From the NCBI GenBank assembly GCA_002441245.1, contig DJVP01000012.1, forward strand, positions 260,255 through 324,254: a stretch of DNA of 64,000 bases, in the 5' to 3' direction. Below are positions 1,905 to 52,885 of the stretch, piece by piece. Positions within the stretch are counted from its first letter, which is position 1; every line of letters begins with the position of its first letter. Origin of the DNA: Candidatus Omnitrophica bacterium UBA6253 (GTDB lineage Bacteria > Omnitrophota > Gorgyraeia > Gygaellales > Profunditerraquicolaceae). Both the position numbers and the translations under genes were made by a program. The notes beneath the pieces are model-generated. The model was not told the origin of the DNA. It saw only the letters and a program-made list of their open reading frames with translations, and searched no databases.

Positions 1905-3143
1905 CTACTTTCTAATGGTTTTGTCAAACTCCATATCCAATTTTACCAGGCCGCCCTTAAACGGTTCAATTATCCGTTCAAGAATTCCGGATAGATAAGC
2001 CATCAGCACGCCATAATTAGTAATCGCAACGCCTGCGGACCTGGCCTTTTCAATACGATGCATAATTTCTTTACGGTTAACCATGCATCCTCCACAGGAG
2101 ATAATTATCTTATACCGGCTTAAATCCTGGGGAAAATCTCCTCCCGCAGTGACTTCATAATGCAGGTCTTTCCTGGTGTAATTCATCAACCAGGTAGGAA
2201 TTTTGGTACGACCGATATCTTCCGGCTGCACATGATGTGTACAAGCCTCAGCTATCAGGATCTCATCGCCATCTTTTAATTTCTCCAAGGCATAAACACC
2301 CTGGATATAAACATTGAGGTCTCCTTTATGCCTGGCAAAAACAGTGGAGAATGATGTCAAGGGCACTTCCACGGGAAGAATATCACGCACATCCTCGAAA
2401 ACCTGTGAATCAGTAATTACAAGTTTTGGCTTCTTTTTTAATGCATTAATACAATCTAAAAGTTCAGTTTCTTTGGTAACAAAGGCAACAGCGTTAGCAT
2501 CTAAAATATCCCGTAACACCTGCACCTGGGGGAGGATTAATCTTCCTTGAGGCATGGCACTATCAATTGGGCAAACCAAAATTACCACATCTTTAGGGCT
2601 AATTATATCAGCTACCAGAGGGATAGGCGACCAATGGCCAGGAGCCATCTCCATTATTTTCTCTTTAAGCTCCTCAATTGCCTGTTTTGTTTTAGAGCTT
2701 ACCCTGATAAATGGAAGCTTTTTATCTATTAAATAATCCTCCGCCCTTTTCCCCTGCAGTTCACCTTTATTGATTACAAACAGAAAAGGCAACTTTTTGC
2801 TGCGGAAGGTATTAATTAAATCCTCTTCAAAACTATCAATCATCGTATCCGGCTCAACAACAATTAAACCCACATCCGTCTTTCTTAATACCACCAGGGT
2901 ACGCTTAACCCTCTCCTCGCCTAAAACCCCCTCATCGTCAATACCGGCAGTATCAATTAATATACATGGCCCAATAGGTAAAATCTCCATAGCCTTATAA
3001 ACCGGGTCTGTAGTTGTCCCGGCTACCTCAGAAACGATTGCCGTATCCTGACCGGTAATCGCATTAATCAAACTGGATTTCCCCGTGTTCCTTTTACCGA
3101 ATATTCCAATATGCAGCCTGTTGCTTGCCGGTGTCCTATACAT
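1905..3143 (-). CDS. hydF: [FeFe] hydrogenase maturase GTPase HydF
   Basis: 412 aa. N-terminal GTPase domain with P-loop GKRNTGKSS and DTAG. The C-terminal region carries the cysteine-containing cluster-binding part. It sits between hydE and nfnA. Confidence 0.88.
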   Translation of the reverse strand: MYRTPASNRLHIGIFGKRNTGKSSLINAITGQDTAIVSEVAGTTTDPVYKAMEILPIGPCILIDTAGIDDEGVLGEERVKRTLVVLRKTDVGLIVVEPDTMIDSFEEDLINTFRSKKLPFLFVINKGELQGKRAEDYLIDKKLPFIRVSSKTKQAIEELKEKIMEMAPGHWSPIPLVADIISPKDVVILVCPIDSAMPQGRLILPQVQVLRDILDANAVAFVTKETELLDCINALKKKPKLVITDSQVFEDVRDILPVEVPLTSFSTVFARHKGDLNVYIQGVYALEKLKDGDEILIAEACTHHVQPEDIGRTKIPTWLMNYTRKDLHYEVTAGGDFPQDLSRYKIIISCGGCMVNRKEIMHRIEKARSAGVAITNYGVLMAYLSGILERIIEPFKGGLVKLDMEFDKTIRK

Positions 3144-4206
3144 TTGAATTAATCCTCCCTTGTTTTAAAGAGTCAGCTTTTGAATAATCAATAAACCTTC
3201 CTAGACCTTTAGCCATCTCATCCATACAAAAGTTACATGCGCCTTGCGGCTCATCAATACATCTCTTTTGGGGATATATCTCATAGAGCTTACGGAATGG
3301 TTGTGGAGTAAAATTCGGCATTAAAACATTTGCCCCGCACTTTAAACCATCCATTCTGTAATCTCTATCCAGACTGCCCAAGGCAGTCGTAGCAGGGATA
3401 TGCGCATTTTTAGTAACTATGCGGGTCAAGGCAATGGTTTTTAAACTAAGTTCAACATTACCCTTTTGCTGACCGGCAAACTGAGTATCCTGATGAGGAA
3501 TAAACGGGCCTATGCCGATCATATCAAAATCATTGCGTTTAAAGAAAATAATATCATGAGAGATGGTCTTTAAGGTTTGCCCGGGTAGGCCGATAATATT
3601 ACCTGAGCCAACCTGATAACCTAATCTCCTTAGAACCTGCAGGCAATCCAGGCGCTGCTTAAAATCCATTTGCGGATGCATAGATGAATATAAGGCCCCA
3701 TCGGTAGTTTCAATTTTCAATAAATACCTGTCAGCGCCGGCCTCTCGCCAAATCCTATAATCATCCCCGCTTCTTTCTCCCACCGAAAGAGTAACCGCTA
3801 TGTCAAAACTTGATTTTATTTTTAAGATAATATCTCTTAGCCATAAAACATCCAAACCTTCATCTTCTCCGGACTGTAAAACCACTGTCATAATCTTACG
3901 CGAAGCAAGATATTCAACTGCCTTAAGCAACTCATCCTTATCTATCCGGTAGCGCTCCAACTTACGGTTATTCTTATTCAGACCGCAATAAAAACACTCC
4001 CGCAGGCAAAAGTTAGAAAACTCTATTATCCCCCGCAAAACAATGCCATTTCCGCAAAACTTTTTTCTCACAGTATCGGCAAAAGAAAACAACTCATTTA
4101 ATTCTTCCTGCCTGTCTAAAGCTAAAACCCGCTCCAAGTCTTCAGGTTCTGGCAGAGAAACGTCGTAGATTCTATTTAAAAGCCCGTTTAGTTTAGACAT
4201 ATTCAT
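3136..4206 (-). CDS. hydE: [FeFe] hydrogenase maturase radical-SAM HydE
   Basis: 356 aa. Biotin-synthase-like radical SAM enzyme with CxxxCxxC as CLRECFYC. Its ends overlap hydG and hydF. Confidence 0.88.
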   Translation of the reverse strand: MNMSKLNGLLNRIYDVSLPEPEDLERVLALDRQEELNELFSFADTVRKKFCGNGIVLRGIIEFSNFCLRECFYCGLNKNNRKLERYRIDKDELLKAVEYLASRKIMTVVLQSGEDEGLDVLWLRDIILKIKSSFDIAVTLSVGERSGDDYRIWREAGADRYLLKIETTDGALYSSMHPQMDFKQRLDCLQVLRRLGYQVGSGNIIGLPGQTLKTISHDIIFFKRNDFDMIGIGPFIPHQDTQFAGQQKGNVELSLKTIALTRIVTKNAHIPATTALGSLDRDYRMDGLKCGANVLMPNFTPQPFRKLYEIYPQKRCIDEPQGACNFCMDEMAKGLGRFIDYSKADSLKQGRINSNV

Positions 4207-5623
4207 CTCTTAAACCGGAATCAACATGCAAAAAAAACAATTTCAGCATTTCTTGTTCAACAGGTTCTAACTGCTTAAAATAATGCCCGATCATTTTATA
4301 ACCCGCATCTTTAACCGCAACAGACGCAAAATCATCGAGATACTCCTTAAGCGTTATCAGGGCATTCATACTACATTTGCCTTTAATTGTCCCGGGCTTA
4401 GCCATCTGCATAAAAGCCTCTCCGGTCCTTTCTTTGCGATAACAGGCGGCGCAAAAAGAAGGAATATAGTCGTGCGCAATCAAAGAAGCAACGACTTCCT
4501 CAATAGTACGATTATCGCCAAGAGAAAACTGGCTTCCGGCCTTTTCGGAAACCATGCCGGCTTTTTCGGCAGGGATACCAGTACCAGCATCCCTGTTATC
4601 AGAATATCCTCCGGGCGAAGTAGAAGATTCCGCGCTGACCTGCGAAACCCCAAGGCCAAGAAGCGCGTCGCGCATAACAGCAGACTCACGGGTAGACATA
4701 ATAATGCCGGTGTATGGCACGGAAAGCCTTAAAACAGCAACTACCTTTTTAAAATCTTCATCCGAAATCTTATGCGGCGGATTAAAAGAAAGCATTGCTC
4801 CTTCTGCCGGTTCAATGCGCGGCACGGATATTGTATGCGGGCCAACATTAAACTCCTTTTCCATATGCTCTATATGGGAAAGCAACCCCAGTGTCTCAAA
4901 CCTCCAGTCATATAAACCATAAAGCGGCCCAATACCAATATCATCAATTCCAGCGGCAAAAGCCCTGTCCGGTGCACTGATCCGGTTATCCGGGTCACTC
5001 TTTGGGCCGCTAAGATGCATCGCCCGGTAAGTCTGGTCATGGTAGGTTTCCTGAAAGATTTGAAAAGTCCCGATACCGGAGGCCTTCAATTTTTTAAAAT
5101 CACCGACGCTTAACGGCGCACAATTGACATTAACCCTTTTAATTTTATGTTTACCTATTGCCGCTTCGTAAATAGTTTCAACCGCCTGGACATAATAATC
5201 GATGTTTGACTGTCCTGCAGGTGATGCCTCTCCGCAAACTGCCAATATCCTCTTATGCCCGCGCCTTAGGAGCCACTGGATTTGCTGGGTAATTTCGGAA
5301 GTAGTAAGCGCCTTGCGTTTAAGTCCTGAGTTATCCGATTTGAAACCGCAGTATTGACAGTTATTCACGCAAAGATTGCTGATATAAAGCGGCGCAAAAA
5401 GCACTACCCTCCTGCCATAAACAGCATCCTTAACAAAACTGGCCGCCTTGAATATCTTCTGGATATATTCAGGATCCTTGACCGAAAGCAAGGCCGCAGA
5501 CTCCTCCAATGTTAAACGTTTAAGTGATTTTGTTTTCTCAAGAATGGCATCAAGCTTAAGGCTATCAAACTTATCCATATCAGCAAGCAAATTATTTATC
5601 TTCTCTTCATTTATGTATTTCAA
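4193..5623 (-). CDS. hydG: [FeFe] hydrogenase maturase radical-SAM tyrosine lyase HydG
   Basis: 476 aa. ThiH-like radical SAM enzyme with N-terminal CVNNCQYC and a C-terminal auxiliary cluster region (SFCAACYR). It forms a contiguous hydGEF set with its neighbours. Confidence 0.88.
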   Translation of the reverse strand: MKYINEEKINNLLADMDKFDSLKLDAILEKTKSLKRLTLEESAALLSVKDPEYIQKIFKAASFVKDAVYGRRVVLFAPLYISNLCVNNCQYCGFKSDNSGLKRKALTTSEITQQIQWLLRRGHKRILAVCGEASPAGQSNIDYYVQAVETIYEAAIGKHKIKRVNVNCAPLSVGDFKKLKASGIGTFQIFQETYHDQTYRAMHLSGPKSDPDNRISAPDRAFAAGIDDIGIGPLYGLYDWRFETLGLLSHIEHMEKEFNVGPHTISVPRIEPAEGAMLSFNPPHKISDEDFKKVVAVLRLSVPYTGIIMSTRESAVMRDALLGLGVSQVSAESSTSPGGYSDNRDAGTGIPAEKAGMVSEKAGSQFSLGDNRTIEEVVASLIAHDYIPSFCAACYRKERTGEAFMQMAKPGTIKGKCSMNALITLKEYLDDFASVAVKDAGYKMIGHYFKQLEPVEQEMLKLFFLHVDSGLRDEYV

Positions 5624-5672
5624 AATTCACCTCGTTCGATAACAGATATAATGGCTGAACAGGATCCGCTAA

Positions 5673-5924
5673 CTATTCGGATTTGCTTAATCCTGATTTT
5701 ACCGACACCCCGCCGATCTTGCCCAGTTTACCGGTTAAGGCGCCTAAATCATCGGTAGACGCGTTTACAATCAATACAATTACGCTTAACTCCCTCTTCA
5801 CATGAGGAATCCCCATACGCCCGAGAATCAGCTCCCCGAATTCCGTCAAAATACTATTAACTAGCGGAGCGGACTTTTTACGGTTATGAATAATAACCCC
5901 CACAAATCCTAAACGCTTTTCCAT
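5673..5924 (-). CDS. Small TM1266-like protein, the putative iron-only hydrogenase system regulator family
   Basis: The track ORF 5673..6026 starts at TTG and its first 34 codons read through the tandem repeats. An internal ATG at 5924 is preceded by AAAGGAGATAGGG and gives an 84-aa protein, MEKRLGFVGVIIHNRKKSAPLVNSILTEFGELILGRMGIPHVKRELSVIVLIVN..., which has the typical size of this family. It is positioned between the hydrogenase structural genes and hydG. Confidence 0.5.
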   Translation of the reverse strand: MEKRLGFVGVIIHNRKKSAPLVNSILTEFGELILGRMGIPHVKRELSVIVLIVNASTDDLGALTGKLGKIGGVSVKSGLSKSE

Positions 5925-5952
5925 CCCTATCTCCTTTCTTATAAAAATCCGC

Positions 5953-6042
5953 CACCAGGCGGACACCCGTGCAATTCCAATTAGCACGGGGTGCCAGACA
6001 CCAGGCGGACACCCGTGCAATTCCAATTAGCACGGGGTGCCA
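5953..6042. repeat. Two tandem copies, 46-nt period, of a 44-nt unit. Each unit contains an imperfect hairpin: CACCCGTGC, then 12 nt, then GCACGGGGTG.
   Basis: caccaggcggacacccgtgcaattccaattagcacggggtgcca occurs at 5953-5996 and again at 5999-6042. The copies are identical except for the last 1-2 nt. Direct reading. Confidence 0.85.
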
Positions 6043-6057
6043 AACGCTGAATGTCCT

Positions 6058-6120
6058 CTAAAAATAAAAAACCCAACCCTTCTTAAAAAATAATCCTGCA
6101 GAAAGATTGGGATGTTGCAT
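6058..6120 (-). CDS. Candidate 20-codon leader ORF (MQHPNLSAGLFFKKGWVFYF)
   Basis: On the minus strand, AAGGGAGGATGA precedes ATG CAA CAT...TAG. The ORF lies between the hydA stop and the tandem hairpins. It may be fortuitous. Confidence 0.2.
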   Translation of the reverse strand: MQHPNLSAGLFFKKGWVFYF

Positions 6121-6181
6121 TCATCCTCCCTTGGGTATAGAGCCGCTTTCCGGTCCTTACCGCAGGATTCATTATTTGTTT

Positions 6182-7933
6182 CTATTTTATGTAAACCGGC
6201 CTGGCCTTATAATGCACATGCAGAAGTTTTTCCGACTTCTCGCTCAAGGGCTTGCCTAGAAATTCTTTATAAAGCCTTTTTATATACGGATTCTGATGAC
6301 TGCAACGAATCTGTTTTTGATCATCATCCTGATACAATGCCTGAGCCCTTTTAATCCTTAGTTCATCTGTAACCATATAAGGCTGGCCGCCGCCGCCAAC
6401 ACATCCGCCCGGGCAAGCCATAACTTCAATAAAATGATACGGCATTTCTTTATTATTAAGCTTGGCCTCGCGCACCTTATTTAAAATATGTTCCACATTG
6501 CCCAAACCATGGGCAATAGCAATCTTGAGTTTCTTGCCGTCAACCTCAATCTCAGTTTCCTTAACGCCCTTTAAGCCACGGACGCTAACAAACTCCACAT
6601 TTTTTAATTCTTTACCAGTAACAAAATAATGCGCGGTCCTTAAAGCTGCTTCCATTACACCGCCGGTTGACCCAAAAATAACCCCTGCGCCGGCATATTC
6701 GCCTAAAATACTATCGCACTCCTCATCGGGCAGAGTATCAAAATCTATGCCTGCCTGTTTAATCATGCGTACCAACTCCCTGGTACAGAGAACTGTATCT
6801 ATATCCTGAAAGCCCGAAGCAGACATTTCTGCATTCCTGGTAATCTCATATTTCTTAGAAGTGCAAGGCATAATTGAAACCATAAAAATCTTGGCAGGGT
6901 CAATTTTATTCTTTTCTGCATAGTACGTCTTGGAGAGTACACCTAAAATTTCATGCGGGGATTTACAGGAAGAAAAATGTTCAATCATATCCGGATAGAA
7001 CTTTTCCATAAAATCTACCCAGGAAGGACAGCAGGAGGTAATTAAAGGCAGTGGCCTATTCCCATGTAAAAGCCTTTCCTCAAACTCGCTTGCTTCCTCC
7101 ATAATCGTAACATCTGCGGCAAAAGAGGTATCAAAAACCGCATGGAACCCTAAGCGTCTTAATAAAGCGTAAAGTTTCTTGGTAAAATTCTTGCCCACAT
7201 AACCAAAGGCCTCTCCTATAGATACCCTGACTGCAGGGGCAATCTGCACCACGCAATATTTATCCGGATCCATCAGCCCCTTCCAGACTTTGGCTGTATG
7301 ATCCTGTTCAACAAAGGCACCCGTAGGGCAATGCGCTGAGCACTGCCCGCACTTAACACAAGGAGAATCGGCTAATTGTATATCCCCGGCAGGAGAAATC
7401 CGGGTTTTCATCCCTCTTTCCAAAAATGACAAAGCCCAGACATCCTGCAGCTCCTGGCAAACATGCACACATCTGCCGCAAAGAATACATTTTTTAGGAT
7501 CAAGGTCTACGGCGCTAGTTGAAGTGTCTATCGGTAAATCCCTTAAATACTGCGGGAATGATTCATCTTTAATTCCGAAATCCGCGGTAAGTTTTTGCAA
7601 CTCACACTGATTATTCCTGGCACATTTAAGGCAATCATTGGGATGGTTGGATAAAATAAGTTCAATTACCGTCCTGCGAATTTCAACTATTTCCGGGTCA
7701 TGCGTAATAATATCCATCCCCTCATCCAGCGGAGTACAGCAGGAACGCAGCATCTTATGCGACCCCTTATTCTTTACAATACAAATACCGCAGGATGCTG
7801 AAGCAGGCAGGTCCGGATGTTTGCATAAAGTAGGGATTTTTATCTGCACCCTCTTAGCCGCCTCTAAAATAGTAGTGCCTTCTTCTACCCGCAATAAAAT
7901 TCCGTTTATTCTTGCCTTAATTATTTTTGCCAT
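6182..7933 (-). CDS. hydA: [FeFe] hydrogenase catalytic subunit, Hnd-type HndD/HydA with M3 architecture
   Basis: 583 aa. N-terminal 2Fe-2S ferredoxin domain, His-ligated [4Fe-4S] (HPNDCLKC) and two ferredoxin-type clusters. All three H-cluster motifs are intact: L1 TSCCPSW, L2 MPCTSKKYE, L3 EVMACPGGCVGGGGQP. Confidence 0.92.
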   Translation of the reverse strand: MAKIIKARINGILLRVEEGTTILEAAKRVQIKIPTLCKHPDLPASASCGICIVKNKGSHKMLRSCCTPLDEGMDIITHDPEIVEIRRTVIELILSNHPNDCLKCARNNQCELQKLTADFGIKDESFPQYLRDLPIDTSTSAVDLDPKKCILCGRCVHVCQELQDVWALSFLERGMKTRISPAGDIQLADSPCVKCGQCSAHCPTGAFVEQDHTAKVWKGLMDPDKYCVVQIAPAVRVSIGEAFGYVGKNFTKKLYALLRRLGFHAVFDTSFAADVTIMEEASEFEERLLHGNRPLPLITSCCPSWVDFMEKFYPDMIEHFSSCKSPHEILGVLSKTYYAEKNKIDPAKIFMVSIMPCTSKKYEITRNAEMSASGFQDIDTVLCTRELVRMIKQAGIDFDTLPDEECDSILGEYAGAGVIFGSTGGVMEAALRTAHYFVTGKELKNVEFVSVRGLKGVKETEIEVDGKKLKIAIAHGLGNVEHILNKVREAKLNNKEMPYHFIEVMACPGGCVGGGGQPYMVTDELRIKRAQALYQDDDQKQIRCSHQNPYIKRLYKEFLGKPLSEKSEKLLHVHYKARPVYIK

Positions 7934-9697: not shown

Positions 9698-10045
9698 TTA
9701 AATCAATACCTCAAAGATATAATCATTTACTAACATTTTAGAAATCACATGTTTTTCAAGTATTTTAGTGGCTATATCCTTATTCACTGAACCGTAGATT
9801 ACCGAAGGCAGGCCCTCTACATTTACCTCAACCAAAGGCTCAGCATAGCACATACCCGCGCAACCGCATTTTTTAATTTCAATTTGAAGGTTGCGCTTCT
9901 TTACCTCTTCGACAAAAAAATTAAAAACTTCATCTGCGCCGGCAGCAATACCGCAACTGCTTAAGCCAACCTTAATCCAATCTTTAGGCTTATCAGAAGG
10001 GGCCTTACTCATTTTATCTAAATCAGCGGGAGAAAGTTTATTCAT
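9698..10045 (-). CDS. hndB: Small thioredoxin-like [2Fe-2S] ferredoxin subunit (HndB-like)
   Basis: 115 aa with SSCGIAAG...KCGCAGMC. This is the size and position of HndB in tetrameric Hnd hydrogenases. Confidence 0.7.
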   Translation of the reverse strand: MNKLSPADLDKMSKAPSDKPKDWIKVGLSSCGIAAGADEVFNFFVEEVKKRNLQIEIKKCGCAGMCYAEPLVEVNVEGLPSVIYGSVNKDIATKILEKHVISKMLVNDYIFEVLI

Positions 10046-10669: not shown

Positions 10670-12448
10670 CTAAAGCACTCCTTCTCTTTTTTTGTAATAC
10701 GTGTGCAACAAATGGTGCGATTTCTCTCCTAAGGGCTGGCCCAAGAATTCCTTGTATAAAGCCTGTACAGCAGGATTTTCATGTGATTTCCTCAGGGGCT
10801 TATTTTTATCCTCGCGATAAATTGCCTCCATCCTCTTTAGCCTGATCTCATTATTTGTAGGGATCGGCTGCCCTGCGCCTCCCAGGCATCCGCCGGGACA
10901 AGTCATAATCTCAATAAATGCATAAGGCGAACGGCCTTCTTCAATCTCTTCTAATAATACGCGCGCATTGCTTAAGCTATTTGCCACAGCCACCTTTAGA
11001 TTCAACCCGTCAATATCTATGTCGGCAACTTTAATGCCGTTAAGACCCCTTAGATTCATAAAATCAAGCTTTTCCAATTGCCTGCCAGTAAGCACCTCAT
11101 AGGCTGTCCTTACCGCAGCTTCCATTACTCCGCCGGTTGCCCCGAATATTACCGCGGCCCCTGTAGAAATACCCAAAGGCTCATCAAAATCTTCACCCGG
11201 GAGATTTATAAAATTTATCCCCGCCTCTTTAATCAAACGGCTGGCTTCCCGGGTAGTCAAGACATAATCCACATCCCTAAAAGCCTCGTCTTCCTTAAGG
11301 GCCATTTTATTCTTCCAATAATCGAATGCGCTTTGCATTTCTGGCCGGGATGCCTCAAATTTCTTGGCAGTACAAGGCATAATTGAAACAACTATTATAT
11401 TCCTGGGGTCAATATTATATTTCTCGGCATAATAAGTCTTGGCGACTGCACCAAACATTTGCTGAGGAGATTTACAGCTGGAAATATTCCCTAATATCCC
11501 GGGGAAGAAATGCTCGGCAAATTTTATCCACCCCGGAGAACAGGAGGTTATCATGGGAAGTATGCCCTTGTTCTTAATCCGTTGGATCAACTCATAACCT
11601 TCTTCCATAATCGTCAGGTCTGCTGAAAACTGAGTATCAAAGACTTTCGCAAAGCCTAATTTGCGTAACCCCTGGGCCAGTTTAGCTGTAACCAGGCTAC
11701 CTGCAGGCATACCAAACTCTTCGCCAATTGCCGCCCTTACCGCCGGAGCAACCTCAACAACAACAAATTTTTTGGGGTCAGATAAAGCATGCCAAACTTC
11801 CTCTATGGCATTTTTTTCAATGATTGCGCCAGTAGGGCACACTAAAAGACATTGACCGCAGTTAACGCATACGCTGTTTGCCAGGCCGGAATCAAAAAAT
11901 GTAGTTACCTTGCTGGACTTGCCGCGTCCGGAAAAATCAATCGCTTTTACACTCTGAATAGCCGAACACACAGAAACGCAACGGCCACACAAAATACATT
12001 TATTAGGATCACGGGATAAAGATACTGATGTAGCATCCAGGGGTAACTCTGTTTTCGTTGTCTTGGGAAACCTCACCTCTCTTATCCCCATATCAAAAGC
12101 TAGCTTTCTTAATTCACACGACTGGTTTCTGTCGCAGACAAGGCAGTCTTTGGGATGGCCTGCTAAAAGCAGCTCCAGATTCAACCTTCTGGCATTTCTT
12201 ACGCGCTCGGTATTCGTAAAAATCTCCATACCTTCTTTGATGGAAGTAACACATGAACGCAACAAGGTTTTAGCTCCCTTAACCTCAACTAAACAAATTG
12301 AACAGGCAGCTTCCTGATTGATATCTTTTAGATAACAAAGCGTAGGGATATCAATGGCAGCTTTTGCGCAAGCCTCCAAGATAGTCATGCCGGCATCGCA
12401 TTCATAAACCTTGCCGTCAATCTTTAAAGAAACCTTCTTATCTTCCAT
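10670..12448 (-). CDS. Second HydA-type [FeFe] hydrogenase large subunit with an atypical L1 motif
   Basis: 592 aa with the same M3 domain order as hydA. L2 MPCTAKKFE and L3 EIMTCPGGCLGGAGQP are intact. L1 reads TSCSPGW. The second Cys of the canonical TSCCPxW is Ser304, codon TCT at about 11537-11539. Confidence 0.85.
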   Translation of the reverse strand: MEDKKVSLKIDGKVYECDAGMTILEACAKAAIDIPTLCYLKDINQEAACSICLVEVKGAKTLLRSCVTSIKEGMEIFTNTERVRNARRLNLELLLAGHPKDCLVCDRNQSCELRKLAFDMGIREVRFPKTTKTELPLDATSVSLSRDPNKCILCGRCVSVCSAIQSVKAIDFSGRGKSSKVTTFFDSGLANSVCVNCGQCLLVCPTGAIIEKNAIEEVWHALSDPKKFVVVEVAPAVRAAIGEEFGMPAGSLVTAKLAQGLRKLGFAKVFDTQFSADLTIMEEGYELIQRIKNKGILPMITSCSPGWIKFAEHFFPGILGNISSCKSPQQMFGAVAKTYYAEKYNIDPRNIIVVSIMPCTAKKFEASRPEMQSAFDYWKNKMALKEDEAFRDVDYVLTTREASRLIKEAGINFINLPGEDFDEPLGISTGAAVIFGATGGVMEAAVRTAYEVLTGRQLEKLDFMNLRGLNGIKVADIDIDGLNLKVAVANSLSNARVLLEEIEEGRSPYAFIEIMTCPGGCLGGAGQPIPTNNEIRLKRMEAIYREDKNKPLRKSHENPAVQALYKEFLGQPLGEKSHHLLHTYYKKREGVL

Positions 12449-21986: not shown

Positions 21987-22214
21987 TTACTTGGCGGCGT
22001 ACATAAAAGCAAATACCAAAACATATATGGTAATGGCTTCAATAAATGCACAACCGATAATCATGCTCATCATAATCTTATTGTTTGCTTCCGGCTGCCT
22101 GCTGATTGCCCCCATAGCCGAAGCTATCGCAATACCTAAACCGATCGCCGAACCAAGTGCCGCCATGCCCAAAGCTATAGCTACACCTAAATCCATTGCT
22201 GTTTTTGAATCCAT
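21987..22214 (-). CDS. atpE: Fo ATP synthase c subunit
   Basis: The internal start MDSKTAMDLGVAIALGMAALGSAIGLGIA...AITIYVLVFAFMYAAK follows AAGGAGGATAAT. That gives a 75-aa helical hairpin. The 45-codon N-terminal extension in the track ORF is rejected. Confidence 0.85.
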   Translation of the reverse strand: MDSKTAMDLGVAIALGMAALGSAIGLGIAIASAMGAISRQPEANNKIMMSMIIGCAFIEAITIYVLVFAFMYAAK

Positions 22215-22285
22215 ATTATCCTCCTTACCCAGAAAGGGTATACCCGCGCAATTTTTACAACAATAGCCAATACCAACGCAGGGTA

Positions 22286-23044
22286 CTATTCTGCTGCTTC
22301 TTCTTCGTGGTTTAAAACAAGTGCAAAATATATTGTAGTTAACAGGCAAAAAACCGCGGCCTGAACAATTGCCGTTAAAACTGCCATTAACATATTAAAA
22401 AATAATAACGGCAACCCTTTAATCCCAAAACCAGAAAGCAGGCCAATTAATACCTCATCCCCCCAAATATTACCGCGCAAACGTAAAGATAAACTTAAAG
22501 GGCGGATTAATTCTGTAATTACGTGCAGGAAAAGCATAAACAACGGCATAACAATGGTAAAGGCTAAAACCCCGCGCGGCTTTCCTGCCAGATGATCCAG
22601 GTACCCCAGAAAACCTAATTCCCTGACAGCCGTATACTGCACATAAAAAAATACGCACAACGCTAAAGCTAAAGTTGTCGACCAGCTGGCGGTAGACGAT
22701 TTCATAAACGGGATTAAACCTGAAAGATTCATGCAGAGTATATAAATAAACAGCGTGCCTATAAAAGGCGTGTATTTTCTACCGCTTGGCCCCATAATCC
22801 CGCATATAAAATCATCCAGGCCTCCAACAATAATTTCAACGGCTGCCTGCAGCCGGCTTACAGGGATAAAACTATTTTTTCTACAGGCGAAAAAAGCAAA
22901 AATTCCCAAAGCTAAAACAATGAGCAGGGAAAAGCTAACATTTTCCCAAAGATAAATGAATTTAAAAAAAACATTCCCGGGAAATTTATCTGCCAAGATC
23001 GCGAAGATATTCGCCAACTCCGGCATTACAGTATTCTCATTCAT
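22286..23044 (-). CDS. atpB: Fo ATP synthase a subunit
   Basis: 252 aa polytopic membrane protein with the conserved Arg region LSLRLRGNIWG. Confidence 0.88.
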   Translation of the reverse strand: MNENTVMPELANIFAILADKFPGNVFFKFIYLWENVSFSLLIVLALGIFAFFACRKNSFIPVSRLQAAVEIIVGGLDDFICGIMGPSGRKYTPFIGTLFIYILCMNLSGLIPFMKSSTASWSTTLALALCVFFYVQYTAVRELGFLGYLDHLAGKPRGVLAFTIVMPLFMLFLHVITELIRPLSLSLRLRGNIWGDEVLIGLLSGFGIKGLPLLFFNMLMAVLTAIVQAAVFCLLTTIYFALVLNHEEEAAE

Positions 23045-51134: not shown

Positions 51135-51821
51135 TTATTTTGATTTAATCGCCAGAACCTTAATAAAATCAGCGCAATCTTCTATCTTATCAGTTACGCC
51201 TTCCAGATATTCCGCCAGCTGATAAGTCAGCAACAGACTAACCGGCTCAAGCTTTGCGTGAATAATAGCTTCGATCATCGCTTTTTTCTGGTCATCGGCT
51301 TCATGCTCTAAATGGTCGATCTCAGCGCTAAGCAACATGGCATTTTTTAACTCATTCTTGGTTAATGCAACTATAGCCTCCTGCAATTTAGAAATAGAGT
51401 TTACGATCAAATCCGTGCCTAAGGAAATATTCTTTAGTACGCCTTCGGGGATCTCGCCTTCAATAAAACCCAGAAGCCTGGCTGCGCCATTAGTCCAATC
51501 AGCTATTTTATCCAAAGTTTTTACAAAATGCATCATATCCTCCCTGTCAGGAGGCAGAAGCATGCCCTCGGAAAGCTGATCGATCATTTTAGAACGTAAG
51601 ACATCCGCCTGGTGCTCACTCTGCCTGACACTCTCAATTGCTTGTGTCTTGGCCTCAAGGTCTCCTTTAATAAAATATTTTACTGCCTCGGCAAAAAAAG
51701 CAACCGTCTTATAAGTTTCTTCTACATGCCTCTTGGCATCCTGAAGTATTGATTGTTCCTCTGCCATGCCTAACCAACCTAAGATATTCCTCGTTTCTTT
51801 CATTTTTACCTCCTTACCCAC
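51135..51821 (-). CDS. DUF47 / PhoU-related protein, the accessory partner of PiT transporters
   Basis: 228 aa helical protein of the Pit-accessory family, directly upstream of the PiT gene. Confidence 0.65.
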   Translation of the reverse strand: MGKEVKMKETRNILGWLGMAEEQSILQDAKRHVEETYKTVAFFAEAVKYFIKGDLEAKTQAIESVRQSEHQADVLRSKMIDQLSEGMLLPPDREDMMHFVKTLDKIADWTNGAARLLGFIEGEIPEGVLKNISLGTDLIVNSISKLQEAIVALTKNELKNAMLLSAEIDHLEHEADDQKKAMIEAIIHAKLEPVSLLLTYQLAEYLEGVTDKIEDCADFIKVLAIKSK

Positions 51822-51907
51822 AAGGGCATACTCGCGTAACCTGCGCTACCTAGCGCACACCGGCGCAATACCTATTAACGCCGGGTGATTATTAACGCGG
51901 AATCTTG

Positions 51908-52885
51908 TTAAATTTTTATAAACATTCTAATTACTTGCAGCACCATATAACTAATTAATCCAGAAATAAAAGGAGTGGCCATCCAGCAAATGATCATATC
52001 CTTCATTATGCGAAAGTTTAACACCCTGATCCCCCTGACCAAACCCACCCCGCAAATCGCACCGACTATAGAATGGCTGGTAGAAACAGGTATACCGAAA
52101 ACCGTATATAGATGCACATTAACTGCGCTGGCTAATTGCGCGGAAAGCGCCATAATCGGAAGCAAGCGGGTAATCTCTGACCCCACAGTCTCAATAACCT
52201 TATACCCCCAGGTCATTATACCTAAGACTATAGCTAAACCGCCAAAGGTTACGCTCATATTCTGCGTAAGCACTCCAACTCCGGAAATAACTCCCACGGA
52301 ATTAGCTACATCATTTGCCCCCCAGGTATATGCTACATAACATCCGCTGGCGATAACCAGAAAAAAAACAATTGGTTTTATGAATTTACGCGGAAAAAAA
52401 CGATAAAATAAATTTTGCAGAATCCTAAAGAATATATAACCTAAAATTGCCGCGCCTACAGGAGTAAAGATCCAGCAAGCAAATATATCCAGCAACATCT
52501 TCCATCTAACCGGGGCCCCGACTGCAAGACCCGCTCCCGCAACCGCTCCGACAATGGAATGGCTTGTAGAGATAGGAATCTTCCAATAAGTAGCAATAAT
52601 TACCCAAACACAAGCTGCAAACGTAGCCACTAAAGCCACGTACATAGAAACTTGTTTCTCCAGCTGGTCCAGTGGGACAATCCCCTTACCAACGGTTTTA
52701 GTTACATATGCGCCCTGTAGATACGCTCCTAAAAAACCAAAGATTACAATCAGAATGATTGCCTGACGCAAGGTTAGAACCTTTGAACCAACGGCAGTAC
52801 CCAAAGAATTAGCGGCATCATTAGCACCAATTGACCAACCCACTGCTAAACCCATAAGCAAAACTAGAATAACAAGCAATGCCAC
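51908..52885 (-). CDS. pit: Inorganic phosphate transporter, PiT family
   Basis: 325 aa with duplicated PiT signature GANDVANSVG / GANDAANSLGT. Confidence 0.88.
   Translation of the reverse strand: MALLVILVLLMGLAVGWSIGANDAANSLGTAVGSKVLTLRQAIILIVIFGFLGAYLQGAYVTKTVGKGIVPLDQLEKQVSMYVALVATFAACVWVIIATYWKIPISTSHSIVGAVAGAGLAVGAPVRWKMLLDIFACWIFTPVGAAILGYIFFRILQNLFYRFFPRKFIKPIVFFLVIASGCYVAYTWGANDVANSVGVISGVGVLTQNMSVTFGGLAIVLGIMTWGYKVIETVGSEITRLLPIMALSAQLASAVNVHLYTVFGIPVSTSHSIVGAICGVGLVRGIRVLNFRIMKDMIICWMATPFISGLISYMVLQVIRMFIKI

Follow-up and report, generated by a model that had tools for sequence, protein, structure and literature searches.

The locus described here lies in a 64,000-nt stretch of contig DJVP01000012.1 of Candidatus Omnitrophica bacterium UBA6253 (assembly GCA_002441245.1, positions 260,255 to 324,254 of the forward strand), hereafter called the window, and our subject is the spacer that separates the gene of an [FeFe] hydrogenase from the genes required for maturation of the enzyme. 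Genes and elements are on the minus strand, and coordinates are those of the window. The hydA gene (6182-7933), coding for a group A6 NADH-dependent [FeFe] hydrogenase, is followed by a small gene of the TM1266 family (5673-5924; TIGR03959, 96 bits; PF21699, E = 2e-28) and then by hydG (4193-5623), hydE (3136-4206) and hydF (1905-3143), all five scoring above the curated NCBIfam cut-offs. Between the hydA stop codon (TAG, 6184-6182) and the ATG of the TM1266-like gene (5924-5922), which the sequence reads as preceded by the ribosome-binding site (RBS) AAAGGAG (5937-5931), there is a spacer of 257 nt, and the fold of the whole leader is more stable than that of shuffled versions (z = -3.7). An identical TM1266-like protein is also encoded on the Candidatus Omnitrophota metagenome-assembled genome (MAG) GCA_028712745.1. 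A sequence-only reading of the window had described four minus-strand elements in this spacer, a 20-codon open reading frame (ORF) with a Shine-Dalgarno (SD) sequence, tandem hairpin units, a GC clamp and the RBS, and had seen in them a leader metering how much transcription passes from the hydrogenase structural genes to those of the regulator and the maturases. All four elements are found where they had been placed. Comparison of related loci suggests that the spacer is likely to be a composite of two unrelated things, a conserved attenuator and, downstream of it, an insertion resembling the repetitive extragenic palindromic (REP) elements.

The conserved part begins 8 nt past the hydA stop codon with an aptamer-like RNA motif (6122..6174), which is matched by the covariance model R2 with 44.7 bits (E = 6e-11). 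This match (6174-6122) is the only one in the 64-kb window, nothing else being found below E = 0.1. The motif is about 50 nt long, with the consensus 5'-UCCUGCGG-UAA-[GGRN...NYCU hairpin]-GA-NN-CC-AAGGG. An alignment of the 160 nt before the start of the TM1266-like gene at 80 loci reads YCCUGCGG-YAA-GG[variable hairpin]CU-GA-NN-CC-AAGGG, followed about 10 nt later by a hairpin and a U-tract. In the window, the 5' strand of the motif, UCCUGCGG, is found at 6167-6160, the hairpin P2 at 6156-6139, the conserved GA/CC/AAGGG nucleotides at 6138-6128, and the 3' strand AAGGGAGGA, which carries the invariant AAGGG, at 6132-6124. About 25 nucleotides of the motif upstream of the terminator are invariant. 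The variable hairpin is supported by covariation, as helix P2 gives 53 compensatory cells compared with a mean of 25.7 in shuffled alignments, none of 500 shuffles reaches 53, and all slid controls are beaten. As MAFFT leaves the variable hairpin unaligned, RNAalifold run on its alignment did not recover P2 and proposed nothing beyond a 4-bp CCU/AGG hairpin; the helices of the motif were therefore tested as hand-specified structures. 

The distribution of the motif was followed in two directions. In the gene-first set, made of 80 metagenome loci around TM1266-like genes whose proteins are 52-100% identical, R2 gives one sense-strand match upstream of the TM1266-like gene in 70 loci, with protein identities ranging from 100% to about 55%; of the ten others, three offer fewer than 50 nt ahead of the gene, and recognisable variants are seen in several more. 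In the motif-first scan, which covered 185,579 genomes, one per species, and whose matches were listed and then filtered with R2, the context-supported matches listed come from at least about nine phyla. They belong to Omnitrophota, Planctomycetota (Planctomycetales), Fibrobacterota, Lentisphaerota, Verrucomicrobiota, several Spirochaetota, Atribacterota (Ca. Caldatribacterium), Desulfobacterota (Syntrophales and (Pseudo)desulfovibrio) and Moorella thermoacetica. Among the matches listed, all context-supported copies precede genes of hyd maturase clusters, and in about 24 of these loci, out of about 28, a TM1266-like gene comes first after the motif. The general idea of a leader that meters transcription between structural and regulator or maturase genes is thus supported, by a motif and terminator present at about 70 of 80 loci and in many phyla, while the elements to which that role had been assigned are not the ones that would carry it.

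A few copies have no adjacent TM1266-like gene. At L098 (Ca. Caldatribacterium; compared loci are denoted by L numbers) the motif and terminator lie directly before hydG (344 bits) with no TM1266-like gene between them. At L144, in a Spirochaetaceae MAG, they apparently also precede hydG, and a short ORF fragment at the contig end resembles the N-terminus of HydG. At L104, in an Omnitrophota MAG, the motif (2734-2781), the terminator and repeats are followed by a Lyase_1 gene (3087-4460) that is aspartate ammonia-lyase-like and not TM1266-like; an aspartase-like gene type has been reported in hyd clusters (PMC3543383). Two further matches were observed. A Spirochaetia contig (L143) carries a good copy of the motif at 5-50 with no TM1266-like gene within 1.2 kb, and the first larger ORF that follows (423-872) looks like one for a P-II nitrogen-regulatory protein. 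In a Desulfovibrio MAG, a Ni_insertion (LarC-like) ORF is preceded, at a distance of 28 nt, by a short stretch resembling the motif (L149:2463-2494, minus strand), and this could be a chance match because the locus had been pre-selected by the search pattern.

Downstream of the motif in the window there is an intrinsic terminator (6060..6111), with a stem of -16.4 kcal/mol. In the fold (6111-6072), CCCAAUCUUUCU (6111-6100) is paired with AGAAGGGUUGGG (6083-6072), and the U-run UUUUUUAUUUUU (6071-6060; U6AU5) lies directly 3' of the stem. A hairpin with a U-run is found 3' of the motif in all 74 leaders examined, and the 5' strand of the motif is complementary to the loop or to the upper stem of this terminator. 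In the window, a proposed antiterminator would pair CUGCAGGAUU (6101-6092) with the motif 5' strand AAUCCUGCGG (6169-6160) over 10 bp, and the fold of the leader with this antiterminator forced (-33.0 kcal/mol) is near in energy to the terminator fold (-37.0 kcal/mol). Over 70 distinct leaders, the duplex between the 5' strand and the terminator has a mean of -12.4 kcal/mol, compared with -8.4 for the reversed strand; the complementarity exceeds that of shuffled sequences (mean z = -2.36; Wilcoxon p = 6e-10), with z below -1.5 in 48 of the 70. Furthermore, the antiterminator partner varies with the terminator, taking the forms CUGCAGG, CCGCAGG, GCCGCAGAA, UUGCAGGA and UCGUAGG, and compensatory variants occur in which UUCUGCGGC pairs with GCCGCAGAA (L071, L074, L078 and L086) or CCUGAGG pairs with CCUUAGG (L079).

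These observations point to an attenuator in which the terminator and an antiterminator compete, and we consider it probable, from the comparison of sequences, that the motif and terminator act in this way, either as a riboswitch or as an RNA to which the TM1266-like protein binds, and so control whether transcription reads on from hydA into TM1266-hydGEF. The device would be of the OFF type. When held by its effector, the motif would sequester its 5' strand, the terminator would form, and transcripts coming from hydCBA would stop before TM1266-hydG-hydE-hydF; when no effector is bound, the 5' strand would pair with CUGCAGG in the terminator and allow readthrough. In Omnitrophota, Planctomycetales, Syntrophales and the first copy in Desulfovibrio, the motif begins within about 10-20 nt of the stop codon that ends the preceding hydrogenase gene; in the first three of these groups it would act as an intra-operon attenuator, in agreement with the metering proposed by the sequence-only reading. 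In other phyla, the transcripts to be stopped would start at a promoter close ahead of the motif: in the Spirochaetes L099 and L139 only 3-5 nt separate it from promoter-like sites, and promoter-like sequence, judged by eye, precedes it in Verrucomicrobiota, Fibrobacter and Caldatribacterium. In (Pseudo)desulfovibrio (L091, L103, L105, L106 and L154) two copies of the motif are found about 200 nt apart, a short one right after the hydrogenase stop codon and a full one that has AT-rich, promoter-like sequence on its 5' side and the TM1266-like gene on its 3' side.

The short distance from the hydrogenase stop codon in the four groups just named would equally be expected if the motif and terminator were merely the 3' end of the hydrogenase structural operon, that is, the terminator of hydA or an element stabilising its 3' untranslated region. 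We regard this as very unlikely. No hydrogenase gene precedes the motif in Spirochaetes, Fibrobacter, Verrucomicrobiota, Caldatribacterium or Moorella, where promoter-like sequence is found instead and where the motif is always in the sense orientation before TM1266 or hydG, and a plain terminator would need no set of about 25 invariant upstream nucleotides complementary to it.

Several points weigh against the attenuator as we have drawn it, or limit its fold. The P1 pairs (UCCU:AGGG) and the GG:CC pairs are invariant and show zero compensatory changes, which leaves the fold beyond P2 putative. A third helix or pseudoknot, pairing NNCC with GGNN around AAGGG, was considered; it is paired in only 48% of the alignment, and a register-free search in each sequence gave a mean of 2.72 bp, equal to the shuffled mean, so that it was rejected. 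In Omnitrophota the antiterminator overlaps the 5' arm of the terminator by 2 nt only, and in Fibrobacter leaders the complementarity between the 5' strand and the terminator is weak. Finally, the leaders compared share ancestry and are not phylogenetically independent, and the statistics given above overstate significance to that extent.

The same stretch of the window also contains the 20-codon ORF of the sequence-only reading, MQHPNLSAGLFFKKGWVFYF (6058..6120), which reads through the spacer behind the motif and the terminator stem. Its translation across the 5' arm of the terminator might control termination, as in the trp and his leaders, and in the window the ORF does have a purine-rich stretch upstream and does run exactly through the terminator stem. 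Its sequence is present, but we judge it spurious as a gene: it overlaps the motif and terminator, an ATG ORF across the terminator arm is absent in 22 of 31 related leaders, and the other nine use three frames and code for unrelated peptides, with no run of regulatory codons. Furthermore, the supposed SD sequence is the invariant AAGGG of the motif, which is kept even where no ORF follows. Attenuation by a leader peptide is therefore extremely improbable.

The motif apparently corresponds to no known family. Searches against Rfam 15 (4227 families), of window positions 5500-6600 at E <= 10 and of eight motif-bearing genome loci at E <= 5, gave nothing relevant, only chance matches to snoRNA, miRNA and lncRNA models. 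In the full-text literature on TM1266, hydG, hydrogenase maturation and riboswitch candidates no description of the motif was found, although it may be listed in a supplement or in a database outside this coverage. The view that it represents a new cis-regulatory RNA family, placed in front of TM1266 and maturase genes, is well supported by these comparisons.

What the motif would sense can be framed in two ways. On one view, it would belong to a new class of riboswitches as their aptamer, spread over at least nine bacterial phyla and sensing a small molecule of H-cluster assembly or of redox state in order to set the level of hydG, hydE and hydF; candidates for the ligand are a substrate or by-product of HydG or HydE, an iron species, or a pyridine nucleotide. 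We regard this as a real but tentative possibility. It is favoured by loop nucleotides that are near-invariant across about nine phyla, and by the copies that lack an adjacent TM1266-like gene. On the other hand, the near-obligate adjacency of the motif and the TM1266-like gene is explained no less well by an effector that is a protein than by one that is a metabolite.

The other possibility, which we think somewhat doubtful, is that the motif is the RNA-binding site of the TM1266-like protein itself, here taken as a sensor domain of the ACT/NikR-C type with no DNA-binding domain, which when loaded with its ligand would bind its own leader and promote termination, an autoregulation like that of PyrR or TRAP. 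Motif and gene are neighbours whichever of the two is searched for first, at 70 of the 80 gene-first loci and at about 24 of about 28 context-supported loci among the motif-first matches listed. The TM1266 family is annotated only as 'putative regulator', has no DNA-binding domain, gives PF21699 and TIGR03959 as its only matches, and has as its only relative in the Protein Data Bank the entry 2nzc, a "hypothetical protein". Small hairpins whose internal loops are conserved are typical of protein-binding sites, and the motif is of this kind; most TM1266-like proteins are mildly basic, with isoelectric points of 8-10, although this is not decisive and some lie at 6-7. Against a protein effector stand the copies with no adjacent TM1266-like gene, before hydG at L098 and apparently at L144 and before the aspartase-like gene at L104, and the loops, whose near-invariance over about nine phyla would be more usual in a metabolite aptamer. 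Furthermore, the fold family of the TM1266-like proteins is not known to bind RNA. Between the two, a small molecule appears slightly more likely as the effector.

Both readings have precedents. The motif resembles the terminating riboswitches with small aptamers (fluoride/crcB, preQ1-I and guanidine) in being short, highly conserved and structured and in opening a transcript or lying between two genes, with a terminator within about 5-35 nt and one aptamer strand complementary to it, with conservation concentrated in loops and junctions next to a covarying stem, and with a spread over many phyla around a single gene theme. It differs from them in having no match in Rfam 15, covariation support for one helix and a ligand for which there are only candidates, and in an unusually narrow set of downstream genes, the first being TM1266-like almost always. 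With the leaders bound by PyrR (pyr) and TRAP (trp) and those of ribosomal proteins it shares a conserved hairpin with internal loops before the gene of a small regulatory protein, the competition between terminator and antiterminator, and an intercistronic or 5' leader position; PyrR may have several sites in one operon, as do the Desulfovibrio loci with their two copies. The difference is that RNA binding by TM1266-like proteins is only putative and that the motif also occurs apart from their genes (L098, L144 and L104).

The second component of the spacer lies between this terminator and the RBS and consists of a repeat module in two copies. Copy 1 (5997..6042; 41.7 bits with R1, a covariance model built from 12 members of the repeat family) is truncated, with a complete hairpin A (6039-6010, extendable to 6041-6007) and the 5' half only of hairpin B. 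Copy 2 (5943..5996; 67.6 bits) is complete, with hairpin A, whose loop is UAAUUGGAAUU, at 5993-5964 (-17.5 kcal/mol), hairpin B, the 'GC clamp' GTCCGCC-TGGT-GGCGGAT, at 5964-5947 (-12.2 kcal/mol), and a U-run (5947-5943; TTTTTAT in the terminator scan). The tandem hairpin units of 46 nt described previously are confirmed by Tandem Repeats Finder (46-nt period, 2.0 copies, 100% match, 5953-6042) and by the 30-nt hairpin CACCCCGTGC-TAATTGGAATT-GCACGGGTG, which occurs exactly twice (6039-6010 and 5993-5964) and for which none of 100 shuffles gave any match. The second copy matches over 44 nt, the junction being one base off (GTGTC versus GTGGC), so that copy 1 lacks the 3' half of the GC clamp. 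The clamp, its U-run and the RBS are likewise present; the clamp with TTTT is called terminator-like, with a 7-bp stem (five GC pairs) and a 4-nt loop. Other copies of the family have no U-run, and hairpin B with its U-run in the window may possibly be a weak second terminator or an RNA stabiliser. Across the 12 members, the module is made of hairpin A, with a 10-11 bp stem and the loop UAAUUGGAAUU, and the small hairpin B; the two helices are 96.7% and 73.3% paired, and both covary (29 compensatory cells compared with 10.3 in shuffles).

The module is not confined to this spacer. Within the window it is also found at 51837..51892 (67.7 bits with R1, E = 1e-17), between a PHO4 phosphate-transporter gene (51908-52885) and a DUF47-PhoU_div gene (51135-51803), and a probable third locus with a 25-nt loop variant lies at 22221..22290 (19.2 bits, E = 0.002), between the genes of the ATP synthase a-subunit, atpB (22286-23044), and c-subunit, atpE (21987-22214). 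At the hyd locus its number varies among strains that encode an identical TM1266-like protein: two units are found in L001, L003, L005 and the window, and one unit in L002 and L010, which are otherwise identical, and in L006 and L008, which differ by two single-nucleotide polymorphisms. The unit that these one-unit strains lack is copy 1. This difference between near-identical strains indicates that the 46-nt duplication is a recent strain polymorphism. In the gene-first set R1 finds the module at 11 of the 80 loci, and among 80 loci from many phyla in two Omnitrophota leaders only. Where present in hyd leaders it is always between the upstream terminator and the RBS, on either strand and in one to four copies: copies in minus orientation are found in L015, L027, L036, L041, L022, L210 and L211, four copies in L022, and a nested copy in L023. 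A relative with a 90%-identical protein and the same gene order has the module inverted at the same site, and other Omnitrophota leaders have unrelated palindromic repeats there, or nothing.

The sequence-only reading had seen in the tandem hairpins and the mini-terminator abutting the RBS the regulatory device itself, as protein-binding sites or an attenuator dedicated to the hyd genes. The hairpins are indeed stable (-17.5 kcal/mol), the clamp and its U-run fit the pattern of a terminator, copies of the same orientation in L017, L023, L037 and L047 are also U-rich after hairpin B, and modules often end near an RBS. Such a role is nevertheless highly improbable for a module whose copy number varies between near-identical strains, which is missing from most orthologous leaders, where unrelated palindromes or nothing take its place, which is inverted in close relatives, which also occurs at the pit/DUF47 and atpB/atpE sites of the window, and which among 80 loci from many phyla is found only in Omnitrophota. 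By its dispersed copies, its strain polymorphism, its inversion and its absence elsewhere, the hairpin repeat with its GC clamp is, as far as sequence comparison can tell, a lineage-specific mobile or dispersed REP-like element and no conserved part of a regulatory device, which is the outcome that the sequence-only reading had itself named as refuting its view. Two observations speak against its being a widely dispersed repeat: two related genomes show only the leader copies over about 20 kb surrounding their hyd genes, and only three module loci are seen in the 64 kb of the window. A sigma-54 promoter within the repeat (TGGCAC-N-TGC) was also considered and discarded on inspection: its GG and GC stand two bases closer together than in the consensus, and the element occurs in both orientations.

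The likeness to the REP and BIME elements of Enterobacteria and Pseudomonas lies in short (about 35-55 nt) imperfect palindromes placed between the genes of operons, found at several places in a genome, whether single, tandem or inverted, and with a copy number that varies by strain; the stems stay paired through compensatory changes, and such elements can serve as hairpins for RNA 3' ends or stability. The module differs from them in belonging to another sequence family with two hairpins and a conserved 11-nt loop, UAAUUGGAAUU, and in having no GTAG-type head, none being visible in the alignment of 12 members; furthermore, it is seen only in a subset of Omnitrophota, and three loci are documented in 64 kb.

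The stretch between terminator and RBS seems to be a hot spot for insertions. Leaders of other Omnitrophota and of Planctomycetales carry there, within the 160 nt upstream of the TM1266-like start, at least three unrelated families of palindromic or tandem repeats, of the GGGGGACGTGCCGAAAGGGGACACCC... type, of the AGGGACGGTTCTCAAC...GTCCCT type, and as tandem units of about 70 nt (L030, L033, L045, L035 and L060; L011, L021 and L110; L032 and L034). Several independent short-read assemblies (L004, L009, L213 and L214) have contigs that start exactly in the loop of the hairpin, at 58 nt from the ATG of the TM1266-like gene, which is consistent with a repeat or palindrome that confuses assemblers. 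The three module loci of the window all lie on the coding strand, with 0-40 nt between their ends and the SD of the next gene in the operon, and in L022, L031 and L054 hairpin B directly abuts the RBS; this proximity could reflect a preference for certain insertion sites or an effect on translation or mRNA stability.

Further upstream, the window contains a second HydA-like gene (592 aa) at 10670-12448 and, between the NuoE-like and NuoF-like genes, a 115-aa ORF (9698-10045) with no Pfam match, whose position is kept in the related contigs L210 and L212.

To our knowledge, the regulation of the three H-cluster maturases and the function of the ubiquitous TM1266-like "regulator" are essentially unknown, and a conserved RNA switch placed before the maturase genes, from Moorella and Desulfovibrio to uncultured Omnitrophota, provides a testable handle on both. 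The spacer also carries a caution, in that perfect repeats, however eye-catching, may be no more than selfish or neutral insertions into a leader and may hide the real, less conspicuous regulatory element beside them. The motif could serve as a control element in engineered H2 production. If it is a riboswitch, its ligand would show which metabolite cells read for hydrogenase maturation or redox state. If it is the target of the TM1266-like protein, it would be the first identified nucleic-acid target of the TM1266 family and would make the family one of RNA-binding attenuation proteins.

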